From Escherichia coli O127:H6 str. E2348/69 (lineage in GTDB: Bacteria; Pseudomonadota; Gammaproteobacteria; Enterobacterales; Enterobacteriaceae): 64,000 nt of DNA. The notes below the pieces were generated by a model. The model was not told where the DNA came from, ran no database searches, and worked only from the letters and a program-made list of their open reading frames with translations. Below are positions 12,399-58,256 of the stretch, piece by piece (the first letter of the stretch is position 1; every line of letters starts with the position of its first letter). Made by a program: the position numbers and the translations under genes. Location of the stretch: NCBI RefSeq assembly GCF_000026545.1, contig NC_011601.1; one strand, 5' to 3'.

Positions 12399-13913
12399 TC
12401 ACGTCTGACTTACCTTTTTCTCCCCCCCCAGCAAACTCCCCAACATCCCACGCACAATCTGATTCGTCACCTGGCGGGCGGCGCTTTTCGCCATTGTTTG
12501 CACCACACCATCTTTCTTCCCGCCGCGTGGTCCGGTAGTGCCAAACAAAATATCCTTCAATCCACCAAGAATACCGTCATCCACCGCCACCTCTTTCCCT
12601 TTCGCGGGAGGATTATTTTGCTGCTCGGTACTGGCCTGAAAGCCTTTTTGCAACATCTCATAGGCGGATTCCCGGTCCACGTCATCCTCGTACTTGCCAT
12701 ACACCGGAGAGTGATTAATCAAGCCATTACGCTCATCTTCCGTCACCGGCCCCATTCGTGAACAGGGGGCAATCACCATCGCCCGTTCCACCACTGAAGG
12801 GCTTCCTTTCGCATCGAGAAACGAGATTAACGCCTCGCCGGTCCCCAGTTCCTGGATTGCCTTTTCGGTATCAAACGCCGGATTGGCCCGCATGGTTTGC
12901 GCCGCAGCTTTTACTGCTTTCTGATCTTTGGGCGTAAAAGCCCGCAAAGCGTGTTGAACGCGATTACCGAGCTGGCCGAGCACATTATCCGGAATATCAG
13001 ACGGGTTTTGCGAAACGAACCAGACGCCCACGCCTTTTGAGCGAATAAGCCTTATCACCTGCTCAATCTTATCCAGCAGTACCTGCGGTGCGTCATTAAA
13101 CAGCAGATGCGCCTCGTCGAAGAAAAACACAAGTTTTGGTTTCTCCAGATCGCCCGCTTCTGGCAATTGTTCATACAACTCTGAAAGCATCCACAGCAGG
13201 CTGGCGGCGTACAGTTTAGGCATCTGATAAAGCTTTTCGGCGCTGAGGATATTGATAACGCCTTTACCGTTAGCATCGTTGCGCATCCAGTCTTTGATAT
13301 CCAGCATCGGCTCGCCAAAGAAATGCGCCGCACCTTGTTGCTCCAGCGACAGTAATCCGCGCTGGATGGCACCAACCGATGCGCTACTGATATTTCCGTA
13401 CTGATTCTGGAAGGATTTGGCGTTATCGCCGATGTACTGGGTAATCGCCCGCAGATCTTTAAAGTCGAGCAGTAACAGCCCCTGATCGTCAGCAATACGG
13501 AAGATGATATCCAGCACGCCAGATTGCACATCGTTGAGATTCAGCAGTCGCGCCAGCAACAGCGGGCCCAGATCCGAAACCGTCGCCCGCACCGGATGGC
13601 CTTTCTCGCCAAAGATATCCCACACCACCACCGGATTGGCATGCGGTTGCCAGTCGTTGACGCCGATATTTTTCAGTCTTGCGAGCAGTTTTTCCGACGC
13701 CTTTCCTGACTGCGCGATGCCGGTCAGATCGCCTTTCACATCGGCCATAAACACCGGAACACCGATTTCCGACAATGACTCTGCCAGTTTTTGCAGCGTG
13801 ACAGTTTTACCCGTCCCCGTTGCGCCAGTAATCAGCCCGTGACGGTTAGCCATTCCCGGCAGTAAAAACAGTTCTGTGTCCGGCGTGCGGGCAATTAACA
13901 GGGGTTCGCTCAT
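12399..13913 (-). CDS. yjgR: Putative ATPase of the HerA/FtsK-like DUF853 family
   Basis: Walker A GATGTGKT and Walker B-like [10 protein letters not shown] motifs; start chosen at the ATG at 13911-13913 preceded by GGAGG; about 504 aa. Confidence 0.8.
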
Positions 13914-14042
13914 GAGATTTCCTCCAGTTTCCTGCCTGGAGTATAGGCAACGGCTGCGCACTCTTCACCGCTAAATTCAGCAGATTGCGAGATGCCTTCC
14001 AAAGAGATTTAAGTGCCGGGCGACAGGCACCCGGCAAAGGGA

Positions 14043-15062
14043 TCAGAAATCGGCTTTCAGAACCACGCGATAACGCGCCTTACCGTCGCGCACATGCTGG
14101 ATGGCGTCGTTAATTTTCGACATCGGGAACAGTTCGGTAGTCGGCGCAACCTTGCTGCGGGCGGCAAAGCGCATCAGCTTACGCAACTCATAAGGTGTAC
14201 CGGTAGCAGAGCCAGAGACACTGCGATCGCCCGCAATCAGCGTAAAGGCCGGAACCGGCAACGGCGTGAGAACCGCACCGACGGTGTGGAAATTACCGCC
14301 ATACGTCAGCGCCTCAAAATAAGGCTGCCAGTCGAGGCTGACGTTGACGGTGTTGATAATGAGATCAAACTGCCCCGCCAGTGCTTTCAGTGCCTGTGGA
14401 TCGCGGCTATTCACCACTTTATCGGCACCCATCACCAGCACTTCCTGCTCTTTCGCCGGATTAGAACTAAAGGCTGTCACCTCGCATCCCATTGCGTGCA
14501 GAAGTTTTATAGCTATATGCCCCAGCCCGCCAATACCAATTACCCCAACGCGGCTGGTGGCAGTGATATGGTGCATCAACAGCGGTTTAAAGACCGTGAT
14601 ACCGCCGCACAACAGCGGTCCGGCAGATTCAATGTCGATATTTTCTGGCAGTGGAATCACCCATTGCCAGTCCGCACGCAACTTCTCGGCAAAGCCACCG
14701 CGATTCATAATCGTCGGCACCGCACCTTGCTCGCAGTTGATCTGATTACCGCTAATACAGGCATCGCAATGCCCGCAGCTGCGTGCCGTCCAGCCAATCC
14801 CGACACGCTGACCGACCTGCAAACCTTTATCCTGCGCGGCACTCCCGAGCGCCACTACGCGACCAATCACCTCATGCCCGGCAACCAGTGGATATTGTGA
14901 AAATCCCCATTCGTTATCGATCATTGACAGATCGGAATGACAGATCCCGCAGTAATCCACCTGCACTTCAACATCTTGTGGCTTCAGTTCACCGGGATCG
15001 TACTCATAAACTTCCAGTTCGCCGCCCGCTTCTTTTGCGGCATAGCTTTTTATCATCGACAT
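14043..15062 (-). CDS. ahr: NADPH-dependent aldehyde reductase, Zn-dependent alcohol dehydrogenase family
   Basis: 339-aa product beginning [26 protein letters not shown] with GHEVIG zinc-ADH motif and GIGGLGH NAD(P) motif; matches Ahr/YjgB. Confidence 0.85.
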
Positions 15063-15200
15063 TTTTTGGTCCTTCTCTGGTGTGGTCTGGGAAGTGTAGA
15101 GCATGGCAGGGCGGGGTGCCTGGAGTGTGACAAAGGTTACACATCGCGGTATGCAATGCTGAAAATTTCAGCACTTAGCGAGGTGCGAGCAAGCTGGCGC

Positions 15201-15228
15201 TTGCATGGTGGCGTGCGACAGGTATAAT
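15201..15228 (+). promoter_or_regulatory. Putative sigma-70 promoter of leuX (TTGCAT-16 bp-TATAAT)
   Basis: Near-consensus -35/-10 hexamers about 30 bp upstream of the mature tRNA 5' end. Confidence 0.6.
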
Positions 15229-15257
15229 CCACAACGTTTTCCGCATACCTCTTCAGT

Positions 15258-15342
15258 GCCGAAGTGGCGAAATCGGTAGACGCAGTTGATTCAAAATCAA
15301 CCGTAGAAATACGTGCCGGTTCGAGTCCGGCCTTCGGCACCA
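15258..15342 (+). tRNA. leuX: tRNA-Leu (anticodon CAA)
   Basis: 85-nt sequence gccgaagtggcgaaatcggtagacgcagttgattCAAaatcaaccgtagaaatacgtgccggttcgagtccggccttcggcacca; long variable arm, CCA end encoded. Confidence 0.92.
15312..15342 (+). repeat. attL core: 31-bp 3' end of leuX, repeated exactly at 30373-30403
   Basis: cgtgccggttcgagtccggccttcggcacca occurs at both positions in direct orientation. Confidence 0.85.
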
Positions 15343-15859
15343 AGTCACTAAATTTCTTACAATACAATAAGTTAGGAAATAAAATCTATCTCTTTTGCCT
15401 GTAAGAAATGCTCTGTTATGTCCCTTGAAAAAGCCGCTGTGGTTGATAGTGGTAATTGGGATGTTAACTCATAGCGGCGTGTAGTTCCAAGCGTCAAACA
15501 CGTACTGACTCAACTTGAAAGCTATGACGTAGCCACCGTCTCTAAACAATCCCAAAAACTTTTAGTGAAGCGCATTTTAGCCCGATGCCCCCGTTCTGTC
15601 GCCGTCGCGAGACGCCGCAGGGGATAAACAGGTTTATGGTGGTCACGGTACTTGCAGACCATATGCAAGCTCTGCCAGCGGTTCGGCCTCGCTCCCCTTG
15701 GGTACATGGTCATCCTGATAAGCCTCACTAACTGACATAACTGTGATGTAGTCGCCAGAGGCTCCGCTTGTTGTCTTACCACCAACGGGGCTTATGACTT
15801 TTATTGTGTCAGTAAACGGCATATTATCAGTGATAGTTCAAACAGTTAGTAGGTAGAAA

Positions 15860-20149: not shown

Positions 20150-21994
20150 ATGCCAACAAACCTACGCCGCCTGCTTGCGCAGGCTGCCGACGCTGACCCG
20201 CTCAATACTGCGGACGCAGATGTACAGCAAATGATCGCTGACGGGATTGTTATTCGACGTTCCAAGATATGCCCTGTAAAGCGTAAACCCGTTAAGGCGG
20301 CATACAACACAAAGACCGAAGAGTTTTATTACAATGCAGATGGCTCCGCGATGACCTTGCGGGAGTGGCGAACGCTGCACGGTGTTCAACCGAAGAAACA
20401 AAAACAGCGCTCTGACACTGGGTTGCGGCAAGTCATCCAGCCCGGCGACGCGATTCACTGCCGACGCGCTGAGATTGAGCAATGGCTTAATAAGAAGCCC
20501 GCTCGTTATGTTGACCCGCTGCCGCCAGATTTTCCCGGTGTTCGCGTAGACGATGCCGCATTGAAACCGCGCGAGCACGCCGTGCCGGAAGCGACAACCG
20601 GACAGAATGCTTTTCTCAAAGCCTGCCGCGAGTTCCTGATTTGCGATGAGAAGACCATGCGCCGTATCAGTCGGGGCATGAACCAAATGGAAGCTATGCG
20701 CAACGCAGATTTCAAACGCTACGGAGACTCAGGGGAGTTTCGTCAATTGTGGTGTGGAGAGTCGAAGCCTACCGAAGATAGATTTAATAGTTCTAATCAT
20801 CATTGTGACCCGAACGGCTTGGCTGCTTCGCCGTCTGTGCCGCCACTGAATACTGCACCGTATGAGTTCCGCCCGCTGGCTCGCTGTGACCGAAACGCAC
20901 GCGTTAGCCTGCTGCCACCTGATGGGCTGGAGTGGAGGCCGGGGCAGTTGTCTGTTGCTGATGCGATCTTTTCCCGTGGCAGTGATGTGCTTGCCGTACT
21001 GCCGACCGGGTATGGCAAAAGCGCCGCCTTCACTTATCCATTGATTTATGAGTCCCGCGCTGGCATTGGCCTGTCTGTAATCGTGGTTCCTACTAATACC
21101 CTTAAGCGTCAGATTCTCCGCCAGTTGCGGGAGGCTGGCATTCACGCTGTGGCCTTTGGCGATAAGCTACCGAGGCACCGCAACGCACAACAACTGGCGG
21201 GACTAGCAGCCGGGGCGTTCCGGGTTGCTGTTGTTTCGCCTGAACATCTGGTTCCGTCGAGTCAGGTTCTCGCGGCGCTGATGGCTTATGGCGTTGATCG
21301 TTTTATTATCGATGAGGCACACACGGTCAAAGACTGGGATTTCCGCCCAGCTTACGACGCAATGCAGCACACACTACAGAATGCTTTTCCCTCGGCTCAG
21401 CGCTGCGTGTTTACGGCTACTCTACTACGAGAAAATGAGCGCGGTTTAATGGAGGCGCTGGGATGCCGTGGCGATTACGTTACATTCCGTGCTGATGTTG
21501 CTCGCGAGAATATCCAGTTGATTCCGGTCAGGCAGTGCCGCCAGCGATACCGCGCGGCTGTTGGTCTGGTCGAGGCTCTGCCAGAGGAAGAGAAGACGCT
21601 CATTCTAGTCAATGACCTTAAGACGTTGCGGGCGTACCTGAAACTCTTCGGCGACCGGGCGCGCCCATATCACTCGAAGACGATGCACCTGAGCAACGAG
21701 GAACGCCACGCAAACGCTGAGTGGTTTGCCTCTGCGCCGGGCGCGATTCTGATTGCTACTAAAGCCTTCGGGCTGGGTGCTGATGTTCCTGATATCCGTA
21801 ACGTTGTCGTGACATACGTTCCCGATGACTTGCCTGATCTCGTTCAGATGATTGGACGAGCCGGGCGCGATGGGGAACCTGCCCGCGCTTTTCTGCTGTG
21901 GTCATCGCTGGCGCTGGATGTTGCTCCTGATGAGCTTGCTTACTTCTACCGCCCTGAAAACTGTAACTGGCAGTACATCGCTAAATACCTCTGA
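20150..21994 (+). CDS. RecQ-family superfamily-2 DNA helicase with a ~270-aa N-terminal domain of unknown function
   Basis: Helicase motifs LPTGYGKS (Walker A), IIDEAHTV (DEAH box) and GRAGRDG (RecQ-type motif VI). Confidence 0.7.
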   Translation: MPTNLRRLLAQAADADPLNTADADVQQMIADGIVIRRSKICPVKRKPVKAAYNTKTEEFYYNADGSAMTLREWRTLHGVQPKKQKQRSDTGLRQVIQPGDAIHCRRAEIEQWLNKKPARYVDPLPPDFPGVRVDDAALKPREHAVPEATTGQNAFLKACREFLICDEKTMRRISRGMNQMEAMRNADFKRYGDSGEFRQLWCGESKPTEDRFNSSNHHCDPNGLAASPSVPPLNTAPYEFRPLARCDRNARVSLLPPDGLEWRPGQLSVADAIFSRGSDVLAVLPTGYGKSAAFTYPLIYESRAGIGLSVIVVPTNTLKRQILRQLREAGIHAVAFGDKLPRHRNAQQLAGLAAGAFRVAVVSPEHLVPSSQVLAALMAYGVDRFIIDEAHTVKDWDFRPAYDAMQHTLQNAFPSAQRCVFTATLLRENERGLMEALGCRGDYVTFRADVARENIQLIPVRQCRQRYRAAVGLVEALPEEEKTLILVNDLKTLRAYLKLFGDRARPYHSKTMHLSNEERHANAEWFASAPGAILIATKAFGLGADVPDIRNVVVTYVPDDLPDLVQMIGRAGRDGEPARAFLLWSSLALDVAPDELAYFYRPENCNWQYIAKYL

Positions 21995-22031
21995 GTCGAA
22001 AGGCTCTCCCTGATTCTCTGGAGTTAATCAT

Positions 22032-22469
22032 ATGCCTGTTACCGAACATGCGCAGCGTCGTGCTGCGCGTGCGGATGCGCTCATCACCGCACAACTAGCC
22101 TTTGCCCTGAATGGGTACAACTGGGATGAACTGGCCGAACCTCATCGCAAGACCCTTAATCGTGAGGCCATCATTCGCGAGGTATCTACACCGCTGGAGC
22201 GATATTGCCTGCTGAATGATTGCGAGCCGTGGGAGTGTCTGGCCGCTGTACTGAACCGCATGAAAAGGCCGGATGGCTCGCGTCGCTGGAAAGCCGTCCG
22301 GTTGTCCGACCGGGTTTTCAATGGCCGGGTGCATCCAGTGCGCAAGACTCCTGATGAAGTTTACGCCGCCATTGCCCGCCGCTTGTTCCTGCCGAAGCCT
22401 GTGCATCAAGAAGTGATACAGCACATCCGTGCGCTTGGCTTGTTACCAGTTGGAGATAACCACCAATGA
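22032..22469 (+). CDS. Hypothetical protein
   Basis: 145-aa ORF, co-directional in a tightly packed operon. Confidence 0.4.
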   Translation: MPVTEHAQRRAARADALITAQLAFALNGYNWDELAEPHRKTLNREAIIREVSTPLERYCLLNDCEPWECLAAVLNRMKRPDGSRRWKAVRLSDRVFNGRVHPVRKTPDEVYAAIARRLFLPKPVHQEVIQHIRALGLLPVGDNHQ

Positions 22470-28037: not shown

Positions 28038-28940
28038 TCAAACAGGAATGTTGTAGTAATGACAAATTGCATTAGTTAGTAGAGCTGGTGCAGCAGACGC
28101 TGCAATATTTAGCGTCCCCGCATATGCTTTACCAATCATATTTACAACCCACTTCCCAAGGCTATCACTGAAATTGTCCGGGGTAGTTGGGGCGGGTGAT
28201 TCTTGTATAGCTTGATGAAGGCTCTTAATATCTTCATCATTAGCGCCCCAATCCTTGAGCTGCTTTTCAAGCGAGTTGAAGTCTCCAGCGTTGACAGTAT
28301 TATTTTGTGAAATGTCCCCGTTACCAGAGCCAATAACGCCAGCATTGTTTACGTTGCCATGAATGTTGGTCACGTTATGGACAGTCATTGGCGCTACCTC
28401 TTTTTCTCTTAATGAAAACTGTAACCCTTCGCCTAAAATACCCTTTGACTCTAAGTCTAAAGACCAGTCGAGGATCTTATTCCTAACGGTAGTAATTACA
28501 TGTTCTAGTACACCAGCGCTTATAACCCATACCATCTCAGTCTTTTGTCCGATACTTTGAGCTAATGTATCAGCCATCCAATCCGGGAGAGGTAAAAAAG
28601 GGTTTTCTCCTTTATTGCTCATCTTTTTTATAGATGATATTGATTCTGTAATGTGAAACGTTGATACCATTGCATTTAATTCCGCGTCGTTGAAGTTGAC
28701 CACAAGCGGAACCCAGCTCTGATGTTGGGGACTATATGCTTTTAACTGCGATTGACCTTTCCTGTATTCAGGAACCGTATCAAAGCTGGGATAGCCATTT
28801 AATTCGAGCTGTATCCACTCGGTCAAATCGCTGAGGCCGAGCTTCACTGCAATCATTTTGGCCTTCATGAGTACAGATAAAATGTCGGAGTCGGGATCGC
28901 ACGCTAGTGCTTGAAGTTCAAGAACTGGTGAGTTAGCCAT
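28038..28940 (-). CDS. Hypothetical protein adjacent to the integrase (candidate abortive-infection/defense cargo)
   Basis: 300-aa ORF on the integrase strand, convergent with the main operon; N-terminal region loosely resembles Abi-type proteins, from memory only. Confidence 0.4.
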   Translation of the reverse strand: MANSPVLELQALACDPDSDILSVLMKAKMIAVKLGLSDLTEWIQLELNGYPSFDTVPEYRKGQSQLKAYSPQHQSWVPLVVNFNDAELNAMVSTFHITESISSIKKMSNKGENPFLPLPDWMADTLAQSIGQKTEMVWVISAGVLEHVITTVRNKILDWSLDLESKGILGEGLQFSLREKEVAPMTVHNVTNIHGNVNNAGVIGSGNGDISQNNTVNAGDFNSLEKQLKDWGANDEDIKSLHQAIQESPAPTTPDNFSDSLGKWVVNMIGKAYAGTLNIAASAAPALLTNAICHYYNIPV

Positions 28941-29027: not shown

Positions 29028-30239
29028 TTAGATGTTTATTCCTTCATGCTGGATGAGTTCGACATACTTACCGATCTCTATAGGGGAAGCTGCATTTTTC
29101 GAGTAAGTTTTGAAGCTCTCTGTACTCCCGCGCTCATGACCGACGAGCAGGGCAATACGATCTTCTGGCACTTGAGCACGGTCGAGCTGTTGCACAAAAG
29201 CATGGCGGAGTGAGTGAAACACTTTTCTCTCTGCGGCAGGCTCGCCAAGAGCTTTACGCTTTGCTCGCGTGAATTGCTGCGTATGCCACGTTGAGCGCTT
29301 CCCATCGGCCCGGTCTGTTATTGATGCGTGATAGAACAGAAAACCGCTATGTGTGGTCTTGAGCAATGACTTCACGAGAGGGATTATCTTGCTGTGTACA
29401 GGGACGATTCGCGCCGCGCTCTTAGTCTTCCCCTCGGTGATCTCAAAGCACAATATACCCTCGATAGTTTTAATACTGCTTTCACGTAGCGTACATATCT
29501 CATTGATCCGCATACCGCTGTATGCACCAATAGCCGTTACCGCCTTCATCTCGTCATCAAGCAAGGCATAGACCTTTGCCAGCTCTCCCGGTGCGAAGAC
29601 TTCATAGCTGACCTTGCTGCTTTTTGCTTCGAGCGCATGACCGCGCCAAGGATTGTCCTGTGGTGCATCGTGATAGCGATTGCGTGCCAGATCCCATATC
29701 TGCGCCAGTGCGCTTATATAGTTTTGGATAGTTTGGGGCGCTCGCTCAGTTTTGAGCTTATCTAACCAGCCTGTAACTATGGTTCGGTTAATATCCCGCA
29801 ACTGAACATCTTTCTTTTTCAAGTGGGTTAACAGCACCTCTACGGCTTTGTTGGTCTTGGATAACGTGGTTAGCTTTCGCTTCTCGCTGTATTGAAGCAG
29901 GTACAAATCACGCATTTTTAGCAAGGAAGGGCAAGCCTGAATCGATGCACCAAACGATGCGGGGGCTTCCTTGGCGTACACACTGACACGGCGTAGCTCA
30001 TCAATGATTTGGTCTACAGATGAGCCGCCTTGTGGCTTTAGCAGATTCCGTAAGCGAGTCCATTCCAGAGCAATAGCATCTCGAAACAATCGCGCTTGGC
30101 GTATGTCTCGTGTTCCTGTGCTTTTCATAAAGTAGCGCTTCCCTTGGAACAGGTGGCGCATATAGCTGGGAATAGCTATCCGCACGAGGTAATTCCCGCA
30201 GGGATCTAAAACTAGATAACGATCTCTCTTGAAACTCAT
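29028..30239 (-). CDS. Tyrosine-type site-specific integrase
   Basis: 403-aa ORF with C-terminal catalytic motifs (HSLRHAF, LLVGHERG, downstream Tyr); adjacent to the attR repeat. Confidence 0.9.
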   Translation of the reverse strand: MSFKRDRYLVLDPCGNYLVRIAIPSYMRHLFQGKRYFMKSTGTRDIRQARLFRDAIALEWTRLRNLLKPQGGSSVDQIIDELRRVSVYAKEAPASFGASIQACPSLLKMRDLYLLQYSEKRKLTTLSKTNKAVEVLLTHLKKKDVQLRDINRTIVTGWLDKLKTERAPQTIQNYISALAQIWDLARNRYHDAPQDNPWRGHALEAKSSKVSYEVFAPGELAKVYALLDDEMKAVTAIGAYSGMRINEICTLRESSIKTIEGILCFEITEGKTKSAARIVPVHSKIIPLVKSLLKTTHSGFLFYHASITDRADGKRSTWHTQQFTRAKRKALGEPAAERKVFHSLRHAFVQQLDRAQVPEDRIALLVGHERGSTESFKTYSKNAASPIEIGKYVELIQHEGINI

Positions 30240-43237: not shown

Positions 43238-44218
43238 TCACCTTTCGCGCCAAAACTGCAAAATTGCTTCTACAAACCTGTCAGAAATAATCCCCCGACG
43301 GGCTGCCGCGCTGAAATGACTGCTTCGCAGTGCCGTCGTCCAGTTCTCCGGTGACCGGTACGCTGAACCGTAATATCCCGTGCTTAAATCGTCCGGGTCT
43401 TCATCAGGCGCGTTCGTCAGTCCTCTTTCACCTTGTTGCTGGAAGTCGACGAAAATAATATTGGCTAAAACATTATTTTGATAATTGCCATAAATAGCTT
43501 CATACGCATGAGGGAAATTTTCTTTCCAGTACCAGGTGGTATCGCCGCAAAACCACGGTGCGTCAGTAATATTATTAAGCTGAGAATGGTATTGTTTTAG
43601 ATCCCTACGAAAGGCTTCAACCATATGATTAAAGTGTTGAGGATGTGACGCGTAGTCACTGGTCATTAAGTCAAATTCGCCTTGCATCCAGCATACGCCG
43701 AGGAATTTGTTCTGCGGATTTTTTGCCAGTGCGGCTCGCGTTCTGCTCACTAAATCCTGGTATAGCGGAGTATCCGTTCCCCAACGACAAGCATCATGGC
43801 TGGCTCCGTGCCGTTCTGAATATGTCCCTTCGCTGCCCGCGGTAAAAGCCGATCCGCCACGGCAACACGGAACGATGAGAACCCCTGCATTATCAGGAAT
43901 AAAGGGCAGTAATTTCCGTGCTATATGCAGTGCCTGGCCAACGGTGCCGTACTGTGTTTGATGATTCGTTGCCAGAGGATGGTGATAACCCTGCATATCC
44001 TGAACATCGTGTGGGCAGTGAGTCAGTGGAATAATGTCGTTAAAGTGACATGACGGGCCTCCGGGATGCGTATGCGCAAATCTCGCTAATTGTTTAATTC
44101 TGGGATGAGGCGCATCTTCCTTGTCCGGTAATGGTAGTCCTTCGCCATACGCCATGGCATTAGATTGACCAGCAACGGTAAGAACATAGTAATAATCGGG
44201 CGATATTATCGCGTTCAT
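43238..44218 (-). CDS. nanS: N-acetyl-9-O-acetylneuraminate esterase
   Basis: 326-aa ORF; SGNH-hydrolase-like N-terminus (VLTVAGQSNAMAYG); position downstream of nanM and nanC matches the E. coli nanCMS operon. Confidence 0.8.
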   Translation of the reverse strand: MNAIISPDYYYVLTVAGQSNAMAYGEGLPLPDKEDAPHPRIKQLARFAHTHPGGPSCHFNDIIPLTHCPHDVQDMQGYHHPLATNHQTQYGTVGQALHIARKLLPFIPDNAGVLIVPCCRGGSAFTAGSEGTYSERHGASHDACRWGTDTPLYQDLVSRTRAALAKNPQNKFLGVCWMQGEFDLMTSDYASHPQHFNHMVEAFRRDLKQYHSQLNNITDAPWFCGDTTWYWKENFPHAYEAIYGNYQNNVLANIIFVDFQQQGERGLTNAPDEDPDDLSTGYYGSAYRSPENWTTALRSSHFSAAARRGIISDRFVEAILQFWRER

Positions 44219-55437: not shown

Positions 55438-56340
55438 ATGAAACGAGTTATTACCCTGTTTGCTGTACTGCTGATGGGCTGGTCGGTAAATGCCTGGTCA
55501 TTCGCCTGTAAAACCGCCAATGGTACCGCAATCCCTATTGGCGGTGGCAGCGCCAATGTTTATGTAAACCTTGCGCCTGCCGTGAATGTGGGGCAAAACC
55601 TGGTCGTGGATCTTTCGACGCAAATCTTTTGCCATAACGATTACCCGGAAACCATTACAGATTATGTCACACTGCAACGAGGCTCGGCTTATGGCGGCGT
55701 GTTATCTAATTTTTCCGGGACCGTAAAATATAGTGGCAGTAGCTATCCATTTCCTACCACCAGTGAAACGCCGCGGGTTGTTTATAATTCGAGAACGGAT
55801 AAGCCGTGGCCGGTGGCGCTTTATTTGACGCCTGTGAGCAGTGCGGGCGGGGTGGCGATTAAAGCTGGCTCATTAATTGCCATGCTTATTTTGCGACAGA
55901 CCAACAACTATAACAGCGATGATTTCCAGTTTGTGTGGAATATTTACGCCAATAATGATGTGGTGGTGCCTACTGGCGGCTGCGATGTTTCTGCTCGTGA
56001 TGTCACCGTTACTCTGCCGGACTACCCTGGTTCAGTGCCGATTCCTCTTACCGTTTATTGTGCGAAAAGCCAAAACCTGGGGTATTACCTCTCCGGCACA
56101 ACCGCAGATGCGGGCAACTCGATTTTCACCAATACCGCGTCGTTTTCACCCGCGCAGGGCGTCGGCGTACAGTTGACGCGCAACGGTACGATTATTCCAG
56201 CGAATAACACGGTATCGTTAGGAGCAGTAGAGACTTCGGCGGTAAGTCTGGGATTAACGGCAAATTACGCACGTACCGGAGGGCAGGTGACTGCAGGGAA
56301 TGTGCAATCGATTATTGGCGTGACATTTGTTTATCAATAA
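55438..56340 (+). CDS. fimH: Type 1 fimbrial mannose-binding adhesin FimH
   Basis: 300-aa product beginning MKRVITLFAVLLMGWSVNAWS FACKTANGTAIPIGGGSANVYVNLAP. Confidence 0.95.
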   Translation: MKRVITLFAVLLMGWSVNAWSFACKTANGTAIPIGGGSANVYVNLAPAVNVGQNLVVDLSTQIFCHNDYPETITDYVTLQRGSAYGGVLSNFSGTVKYSGSSYPFPTTSETPRVVYNSRTDKPWPVALYLTPVSSAGGVAIKAGSLIAMLILRQTNNYNSDDFQFVWNIYANNDVVVPTGGCDVSARDVTVTLPDYPGSVPIPLTVYCAKSQNLGYYLSGTTADAGNSIFTNTASFSPAQGVGVQLTRNGTIIPANNTVSLGAVETSAVSLGLTANYARTGGQVTAGNVQSIIGVTFVYQ

Positions 56341-56373
56341 AGAAATCACAGGACATTGCTAATGCTGGTACCT

Positions 56374-56456
56374 GAGGCGCTACGCTATCAGACCTACAAA
56401 ACCTGCACGTTAGCCCTTTGTAGGCCAGATGCGCCAGCGTCGCATCTGGCATAAAC
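56374..56456. repeat. REP-like palindromic units downstream of fimH
   Basis: ttgtaggccagatgcgccagcgtcgcatctggcataaac and an adjacent partial unit. Confidence 0.55.
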
Positions 56457-56515
56457 AAAGCGCACTTTGCCGACAATCCGAACAGAGCCTGCCATTGGCA
56501 GGCTCCGGTGTTCTT

Positions 56516-56732
56516 TTACGCTACCATGCTAATAATCAACACCATAATCAGCCCAACCACGGAGTTGACCAGCTCCAGCAGACCCCAGGTTTTCAACGTG
56601 TCTTTTACTGACAGGTCAAAGTAATCTAAGAGGCATTGCTAATGTAGGGAATGTGTCTGAACCTGCGGTCATTGTCAGTACCAGCATCAGACCAATGCCG
56701 AATACCACTCAGAGAATGTTAAGCACATGCAT
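56516..56732 (-). pseudogene. gntP: Remnant of a gluconate:H+ symporter (GntP-family) gene: N-terminal about 20 codons fused out of frame to the C-terminal about 35 codons
   Basis: Minus-strand translation gives MHVLNIL*VVFGIGLMLVLTMTAGSD... then, in another frame, ...[33 protein letters not shown]; a hairpin terminator follows the stop. Only about 217 bp where an intact gene would be about 1.3 kb. Confidence 0.6.
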
Positions 56733-56883
56733 AGCGTTTTACCTTACCTGGTTGAACCGTTGTTATTTTGGGCGACATGTTATGTAAATTGGTCAACCAT
56801 TGTTGCGATGAATGTCACATCCTCTGATCAATAACCATCGATTACCCTTTGCTGCAATTTGCAGCAACAACCAGGAGAGTGAA

Positions 56884-56902
56884 ATTCTTGTGATGTGGTT
56901 AA
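56884..56902. promoter_or_regulatory. Putative UxuR/ExuR operator (palindrome tggttaacca) upstream of uxuA
   Basis: atgtggttaaccaatttt contains a perfect 10-bp palindrome resembling the ExuR/UxuR box, followed by a TTGACA -35-like hexamer. Confidence 0.5.
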
Positions 56903-57071
56903 CCAATTTTAGAATTCGGGTTGACATGTCTTACCAAAAGGTAGAACTTATACGCCATCTCATCCGATGCGACGCTACGGCTGTGGCCGGGTTGTTCATC
57001 CGGATACCTAAACAACTCCGGGGTTCCGCGTCTCTTCGCTGTTGAACCCACTATGTGAAAGAGGAAAAATC

Positions 57072-58256
57072 ATGGAACAGACCTGGCGCTGGTACGGCCC
57101 AAACGATCCGGTTTCTTTAGCTGATGTCCGTCAGGCGGGCGCAACTGGCGTGGTTACCGCGCTGCACCATATCCCGAATGGCGAAGTATGGTCCGTTGAA
57201 GAGATCCTCAAACGCAAGGCGATCGTTGAAGACGCAGGCCTGGTATGGTCTGTCGTAGAAAGCGTGCCAATTCACGAAGATATCAAAACCCACACCGGCA
57301 ACTATGAGCAGTGGATCGCTAACTATCAGCAGACTCTGCGCAACCTGGCGCAGTGCGGCATTCGCACCGTGTGCTACAACTTCATGCCGGTGCTCGACTG
57401 GACCCGTACTGACCTCGAATACGTGCTGCCAGACGGCTCCAAAGCTCTGCGCTTCGACCAGATCGAATTCGCTGCATTCGAAATGCATATCCTGAAGCGT
57501 CCAGGCGCGGAAGCGGATTACACCGAAGAAGAAATTGCTCAGGCCGCAGTTCGCTTCGCTACCATGAGCGACGAAGACAAAGCGCGTCTGACCCGTAACA
57601 TCATTGCCGGTCTGCCAGGTGCGGAAGAAGGGTATACCCTCGACCAGTTCCGTAAGCACCTGGAGCTATACAAAGATATCGACAAAGCCAAACTGCGCGA
57701 AAACTTTGCCGTCTTCCTGAAAGCGATTATTCCGGTTGCCGAAGAAGTTGGCGTGCGTATGGCGGTTCACCCGGACGATCCGCCGCGCCCGATCCTCGGC
57801 CTGCCGCGCATTGTTTCCACCATTGAAGATATGCAGTGGATGGTTGATACCGTAAACAGCATGGCGAACGGTTTCACCATGTGCACCGGTTCCTACGGCG
57901 TGCGTGCTGACAACGATCTGGTTGATATGATCAAGCAGTTCGGTCCGCGTATTTACTTCACCCATCTGCGCTCCACCATGCGTGAAGATAACCCGAAAAC
58001 CTTCCACGAAGCGGCGCACCTGAACGGTGACGTTGATATGTACGAAGTGGTGAAAGCGATTGTTGAAGAAGAACACCGTCGTAAAGCGGAAGGCAAAGAA
58101 GACCTGATCCCGATGCGTCCGGACCACGGTCATCAGATGCTGGACGACCTGAAGAAGAAAACCAATCCTGGTTACTCCGCAATTGGTCGTCTGAAAGGCC
58201 TGGCCGAAGTTCGCGGTGTCGAACTGGCGATCCAGCGCGCTTTCTTTAGCCGTTAA
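57072..58256 (+). CDS. uxuA: Mannonate dehydratase
   Basis: 394-aa product beginning [28 protein letters not shown]. Confidence 0.95.

Follow-up and report, generated by a model that had tools for sequence, protein, structure and literature searches.

Escherichia coli E2348/69 very probably carries the commoner, empty allele of a two-state idn site between yjgR and ahr

The idn (GntII) cluster serves the catabolism of L-idonate and 5-ketogluconate, with L-idonate degraded by way of 5-ketogluconate; IdnD is the L-idonate 5-dehydrogenase and IdnO the 5-keto-D-gluconate 5-reductase. The K-12 locus (idnK and idnDOTR) was reportedly described by Bausch et al. in 1998 in J Bacteriol. In the K-12 chromosome the genes run yjgR-idnR-idnT-idnO-idnD-idnK-ahr-leuX tRNA-Leu, and an ST131 strain of phylogroup B2 shares this idn-bearing arrangement. 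The patchy distribution of idn is already in the literature. L-idonate degradation is sporadic among salmonellae (PMC3158058), and in an RNA-seq study of EPEC transcriptomes idnD was exclusive to C581-05 in a comparison with E2348/69, B171 and E110019 (PMC4464170). The surrounding leuX/fim region has been described as a hotspot of about 200 kb for both integration and homologous recombination, with phylogenetic incongruence (Touchon et al. 2009, PMC2617782).

We analysed a stretch of 64,000 nucleotides from E. coli O127:H6 str. E2348/69 (hereafter, the window), which is 100% identical to the E2348/69 (EPEC O127:H6) chromosome NZ_CP059840.2 over a 2801-bp query across the yjgR-ahr junction. The sequence, the list of open reading frames and the RefSeq annotation agree that the gap is exactly 129 bp (Table 1), with the ATG of yjgR (13911-13913) on one side and the TGA that ends ahr (14043-14045) on the other, both codons being on the minus strand, and the annotation of NZ_CP059840.2 sets the same limits for the two genes. 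A preliminary description of this DNA had stated that yjgR directly abuts ahr, with 129 bp and no idn genes in between. The coordinates and the annotation confirm this, and the K-12 order that it gave, with idnR-idnT-idnO-idnD-idnK between yjgR and ahr, was correct and is seen in the K-12 chromosome. The flanking synteny of the idn locus, lptG-yjgR on one side and ahr-leuX on the other, is present in E2348/69. Ahr passes the NCBIfam equivalog NF047908 (553.6 bits against a cutoff of 470, over profile positions 1-335 of 335), whereas the NCBIfam search of YjgR gave HerA/CedD/VirB4-type matches only, all of them weak and below their cutoffs. Profile searches also confirmed pepA, lptF and lptG as the neighbours on the yjgR side.

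Table 1 Features of the yjgR-ahr site and the adjoining leuX island, in window coordinates.
Feature	Position	Strand	Description and basis
yjgR	12399-13913	-	504 aa HerA-like P-loop ATPase; left flank of the variable site; ORF and RefSeq
Empty-site spacer of the idn/GntII locus	13914-14042	.	129 bp; alignments to idn-less relatives
Segment common to idn-less and idn-bearing alleles	13914-13952	-	39 nt; alignments, blastn-short
Empty-allele-specific segment	13953-14029	.	77 nt; without counterpart in K-12 and Citrobacter FP75
ahr terminator-like hairpin	14011-14036	-	G+C-rich stem with a T-rich tract after it, close behind the ahr stop codon
13-mer CCCGGCAAAGGGA	14030-14042	.	Directly abuts the ahr stop codon
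ahr (formerly yjgB)	14043-15062	-	NADPH-dependent aldehyde reductase; right flank of the variable site; RefSeq and NCBIfam
leuX tRNA-Leu(CAA)	15258-15342	+	ARAGORN and Rfam tRNA match; island integration site and centre of the recombination hotspot
AbiTii	28038-28940		leuX island
Internal integrase	29028-30239		leuX island
Type I R-M hsdR/S/M	30628-36645		leuX island
McrBC	38147-41508		leuX island
Phosphorothioate-dependent restriction endonuclease	41571-42443		leuX island
Truncated nanS	43652-43996		After the leuX island

The left flank has a peculiarity of its own. The 504-aa YjgR of E2348/69 has a different C-terminal tail, other strains having a protein of 500 aa that ends in LLGGRRR or LLGGRKR. 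BLAST alignments to most strains break at 12336-12404, within the stretch 12336-12420 that covers the 3' end of yjgR and the lptG-yjgR spacer, which makes this intergenic segment a second small variable patch.

The genes idnK, idnT and idnR are absent from the 129 bp between yjgR and ahr, both by direct inspection of the site and by a megablast across the genome collection. For idnD and idnO we used a chimeric query, composed of 2151 bp of the leuX island specific to E2348/69 (20150-22300 in the window) and of K-12 idnO plus idnD (1820 bp), run as blastn with word size 11 against complete E. coli genomes. Three E2348/69/O127:H6 chromosomes ranked at the top; in each the only matching place was the island, and neither idnD nor idnO was matched. 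Genomes with both parts of the chimera served as positive controls and were matched at two places. The same result bears on whether the idn genes moved elsewhere in E2348/69, to another chromosomal site or a plasmid, for which we found no support and which we consider extremely unlikely: a relocated copy on the chromosome should have given a second match as in the controls, the idn cluster was plasmid-borne in none of 5426 complete E. coli genomes (one or two places per genome, median one), and idnD has been reported absent from E2348/69 (PMC4464170). The idn cluster is missing from the yjgR-ahr site, and idnD and idnO are missing from the whole E2348/69 chromosome. The preliminary description had held that this strain is without the idn/GntII locus and had proposed a genome-wide search for idnD and idnO as a check; the site, the chimeric search and the published transcriptome comparison all bear it out.

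The empty site is common. Among 5426 complete E. coli assemblies, a clinically biased sample whose counts are not population frequencies, yjgR and ahr were contiguous in 3212 and the idn cluster was present in 2055, in 1989 of these at no less than 99% identity to K-12; about 160 genomes had other states at the site. E2348/69 is therefore ordinary in this respect, with the majority state of the sample, and it is K-12 that stands in the minority. These counts leave little room for the short gap being an artefact of the assembly or of the window, a collapsed or mis-joined region. Nothing speaks for such an error, which is vanishingly unlikely: the yjgR-spacer-ahr query is matched at 99% or more in each of three independent assemblies of E2348/69/O127:H6, and so many other complete genomes have the two genes side by side.

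Two genomes deserve separate mention. GPEC1366 (locus L007, 9509-10034), one of those with other states, represents a third state, with a more diverged spacer of the empty type and with ahr cut to a 236-nt pseudogene fragment before leuX. The 928-bp yjgR-ahr interval of MLI104K2 (NZ_CP116925.1; locus L088, 8443-9300), with its LacI-like fragments, was considered as an intermediate or decayed allele and rejected as homopolymer-ridden assembly noise. It contains about 850 bp of homopolymer-rich sequence with pieces 84-88% identical to idnR and idnT, and it is almost certainly an unpolished region of the assembly, in which the annotated 'hypothetical protein' is spurious.

We then compared the two forms of the site base by base. 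An alignment of the junction to K-12, which the preliminary description had also proposed, gave 39 nt in common, followed by a difference of 77 nt against the 5.1-kb idn cluster. The shared 39 nt are the first upstream of the yjgR ATG; they are identical to K-12 at 38 of 39 positions (blastn-short) and include GGAGGA, the Shine-Dalgarno sequence of yjgR. Next to them in the empty allele come the 77 nt, with a core, CGCACTCTTCACCGCTAAATT, that is unchanged in Citrobacter werkmanii and has one mismatch in E. albertii, and they are followed by CCCGGCAAAG(G/A)GA and at once by the ahr stop codon. In K-12 a near-identical 13-mer, TCCGGCAAAGAGA, adjoins the shared 39 nt on the yjgR side of idnR, and the 13-mer of the idn-less strain G3/10, CCCGGCAAAGAGA, matches it at 12 of 13 positions. 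The idn-bearing allele accordingly runs from the 39 nt through TCCGGCAAAGAGA and idnR...idnK, and three bases then lead to the stop codon of ahr.

The alleles differ twice, by the 77 nt found in the empty form only and by the 5.1-kb idn insert beside the ahr stop, and the two sites lie 13 nt apart. As judged from these alignments, neither allele is a single clean indel of the other, and the change between them is compound. One indel and a microhomology-mediated deletion were each considered as the link between the alleles and rejected, as the junctions do not fit one event. A search for idn remnants within the 129 bp (blastn-short of word size 7, against the idn clusters of K-12 and FP75) returned only the shared 39 nt, all other matches being chance 9-14-mers with E values of 0.9 or above. 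The spacer thus holds no leftover idn sequence, which separates an empty-site allele from a decayed idn locus.

This anatomy weighs on the most direct alternative, that idn was deleted de novo from a K-12-like layout in E2348/69 or its immediate ancestor and that the 129 bp are the scar. The B2 strains CFT073 and ST131 strain 2822 carry idn, so the B2 ancestor may have had it; however, a deletion of this kind would leave the 39 nt and the 13 nt followed by ahr, about 52 bp and not 129, and the 77 extra nt have no counterpart in the idn haplotypes of K-12 and Citrobacter. Because the 77 nt are absent from the idn form, the empty form cannot stem from one deletion in a K-12-like ancestor. Nor is the gap a private scar, since the same 129 bp are shared with other idn-less E. 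coli (PK13, G3/10 and 2013C_3963, 97.7-98.4% identical to E2348/69) and with E. albertii (93.8%). We regard a de novo deletion as very unlikely, and on the evidence of the alignments the yjgR-ahr gap is an old empty-site allele rather than a fresh deletion scar.

Given these observations, we consider it very probable that yjgR-ahr is a two-state site, occupied either by the 5.1-kb idn cluster or by an empty 129-bp spacer, and that E2348/69 has the commoner, empty allele. Strains would swap the alleles within the leuX hotspot, the core genes on either side serving for homologous recombination, and the E2348/69 lineage would either have kept the empty allele or have obtained it by allelic replacement, idn not having been deleted de novo.

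The age of the two forms was approached through other enterobacteria. Species-representative genomes were scanned with YjgR, and among the matches listed at least five enterobacterial loci were informative (E. albertii, two Citrobacter and two Enterobacter), most other matches being to distant Betaproteobacteria. E. albertii NBRC 107761 is idn-less, and its 129-bp spacer is identical to that of E2348/69 at 121 of 129 positions without gaps. C. werkmanii is also idn-less, with a 136-bp spacer in which a 48-nt core matches E2348/69 at 41 of 48 positions. Citrobacter sp. FP75, on the other hand, is idn-bearing, with the order ahr-idnK-idnD-idnO-idnT-idnR-yjgR, which is K-12-like and has the same left junction; the 8 kb of this block are colinear with K-12, and the identity of 80.0% is no higher than that of the core genes beside it. 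Whichever the idn state, the sequences of yjgR and ahr on either side track the species tree.

Both alleles are present in no fewer than two genera and the idn cluster is as diverged as its flanks, which makes both alleles old, and we infer from these comparisons that both predate E. coli. A further step can be offered only tentatively: at least Escherichia and Citrobacter, and perhaps Salmonella, may share an ancient polymorphism at this site, with two alleles and fixed breakpoints, each allele being about as diverged as its flanks. If this possibility were true, both forms would have been kept since before the genera split, or would have been exchanged again and again through homologous recombination mediated by the flanks. 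It would also suggest long-term balancing or niche-dependent selection, acting on the use of L-idonate and 5-ketogluconate or on yjgR transcription, and not simple gain and loss.

The interval holds different metabolic cargo in different Enterobacteriaceae. In Enterobacter cloacae DSM 26481 (locus L011, 8217-9863) a 548-aa ORF lies between ahr and yjgR in place of idn, and a reading of its translation suggests a dihydroxyacetone-kinase-like protein. In Enterobacter sp. Ag1 about 1.8 kb separates ahr from yjgR.

Divergence along the locus is high and uneven. The yjgR gene shows about 95-96% nucleotide identity between almost any two E. coli strains (98-99% at the amino acid level), compared with 98-99% nucleotide identity for the adjacent lptFG. 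This divergence is mosaic: within windows of 400 bp it can be as high as 9%, even where both strains carry idn. The idn clusters of ST131 and of K-12 (phylogroup A) are about 99.5% identical, yet windows of their yjgR genes are up to 9% apart. The high polymorphism of yjgR is consistent with the leuX recombination hotspot. An import of the E2348/69 yjgR-ahr segment, which is about 95% identical to all others, from another species was considered and rejected, because yjgR is about as diverged between any two E. coli and E. albertii is only 88-89% identical. High diversity belongs to the locus and to the recombination hotspot, and not to E2348/69 alone.

Mosaic divergence within the leuX hotspot makes allele switching by homologous recombination through the flanks likely, in either direction. 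For E2348/69, which we take to belong to phylogroup B2, a special case of the two-state reading is that idn was formerly present in its lineage until an empty allele, acquired from another E. coli, took its place by homologous replacement. In line with such a replacement, E2348/69 is 2-6% diverged from ST131 from pepA to leuX, as against about 0.5-1% further left, the site lies in a known recombination hotspot, and the B2 strains CFT073 and ST131 are idn-bearing. The near identity of the ST131 and K-12 idn clusters argues the other way, as ST131 may itself be the importer, and no donor-like allele of the E2348/69 segment was found among the 5426 genomes, the nearest being 95.9% identical. Replacement by an imported allele is a real possibility that falls short of being probable, and for this strain the loss of idn through an imported empty allele is as plausible as never having had idn.

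The preliminary description had concluded that this strain either never acquired or has lost the locus. The absence stands; what does not is the use of K-12 as the norm, since the idn-less state is the majority (3212 versus 2055 genomes). For the E2348/69 lineage, at a locus within the leuX recombination hotspot, its two branches are about equally plausible.

We also inspected the spacer for signals that could affect its two neighbours. A small hairpin, CUCCAG-N8-CUGGAG (13920-13945, minus strand), was predicted in the centroid fold; its 3' arm and the Shine-Dalgarno sequence of yjgR overlap, and the hairpin may modulate yjgR translation. It is kept in both alleles and in E. albertii, and a variant form is found in Citrobacter. 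At the other end of the spacer, the terminator-like hairpin has a 9-bp stem in both the minimum free energy and the centroid folds and is made by the end of the 77 nt together with the 13-mer. The terminator scan found one candidate versus 0.7 expected by chance, which is weak taken alone. Its form and position suggest that it is probably the ahr terminator, insulating yjgR from ahr transcription. Rfam detected no known RNA family in the spacer (13600-15500, E ≤ 1), the leuX tRNA being the sole match; the global fold of the spacer was not significant (z-score -0.36); and a scan of 13800-14200 gave no sigma-70 consensus site as a candidate promoter of yjgR. In the empty allele, yjgR would thus lie behind a predicted ahr terminator hairpin and have its own conserved upstream sequence. 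In idn-bearing strains idnR is its immediate upstream neighbour and has the same orientation.

From the absence of the genes, E2348/69, without IdnD, IdnO, IdnT, IdnK and IdnR, should not be able to use L-idonate or 5-ketogluconate via GntII, and annotators and metabolic modellers should score it as having no GntII/L-idonate pathway. Because K-12 is the minority state here, 'missing relative to K-12' is not to be read as deletion. Allele-specific sequence, here the 77 nt, can tell a clean empty site conserved across species from a deletion scar. Within the leuX recombination hotspot, moreover, this small metabolic operon acts like a site with two stable alleles. The finding is nevertheless of modest consequence and matters little.

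Other parts of the window differ in character. Between fimH (55438-56340) and uxuA (57072-58256), where most of the genomes sampled have gntP (a gluconate/fructuronate permease), the interval 56341-57071 holds a 108-nt gntP pseudogene fragment (annotated at 56516-56623). A 1.6-kb query spans about 2.7-2.8 kb with an intact gntP in most other E. coli genomes, and the short form was seen in only a few (e.g., ECGC74 and CE0026f). Unlike idn, the gntP reduction has the look of a true deletion at the level of the lineage, scar included, and it is a second loss in the window that relates to gluconate. The leuX island covers about 28 kb, from 15343 to about 43650, is rich in defence genes and has no integrase beside the tRNA. 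Its DEAD/DEAH helicase segment (20150-21994) is 95.7-96% identical in scattered other E. coli.

Compared with the leuX/fim hotspot as described (PMC2617782), the yjgR-ahr site lies inside the 4421-4618 kb K-12 interval and adjoins leuX, and its mosaic, raised divergence fits; idn is not mentioned there, however, and its site is a core-flanked site with two alleles rather than a tRNA-integrated island. With PK13, G3/10, 2013C_3963 and E. albertii NBRC 107761 the locus shares the 129-bp length of the empty allele and the same hairpin by the ahr stop, but the yjgR and ahr flanks of E2348/69 are 4-5% diverged from those of every other complete genome. The Citrobacter pair, with C. werkmanii empty and FP75 idn-bearing, repeats the two-state site and the same junction architecture in a second genus, although at about 80-83% DNA identity to E. 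coli and with a different hairpin sequence in C. werkmanii. Also close among the described systems is the K-12 idn locus, at the same position between yjgR and ahr beside leuX, with the same flanks and the same 39 nt upstream of yjgR; E2348/69 differs from it in missing the five idn genes and in having 77 nt of spacer that are absent from K-12.
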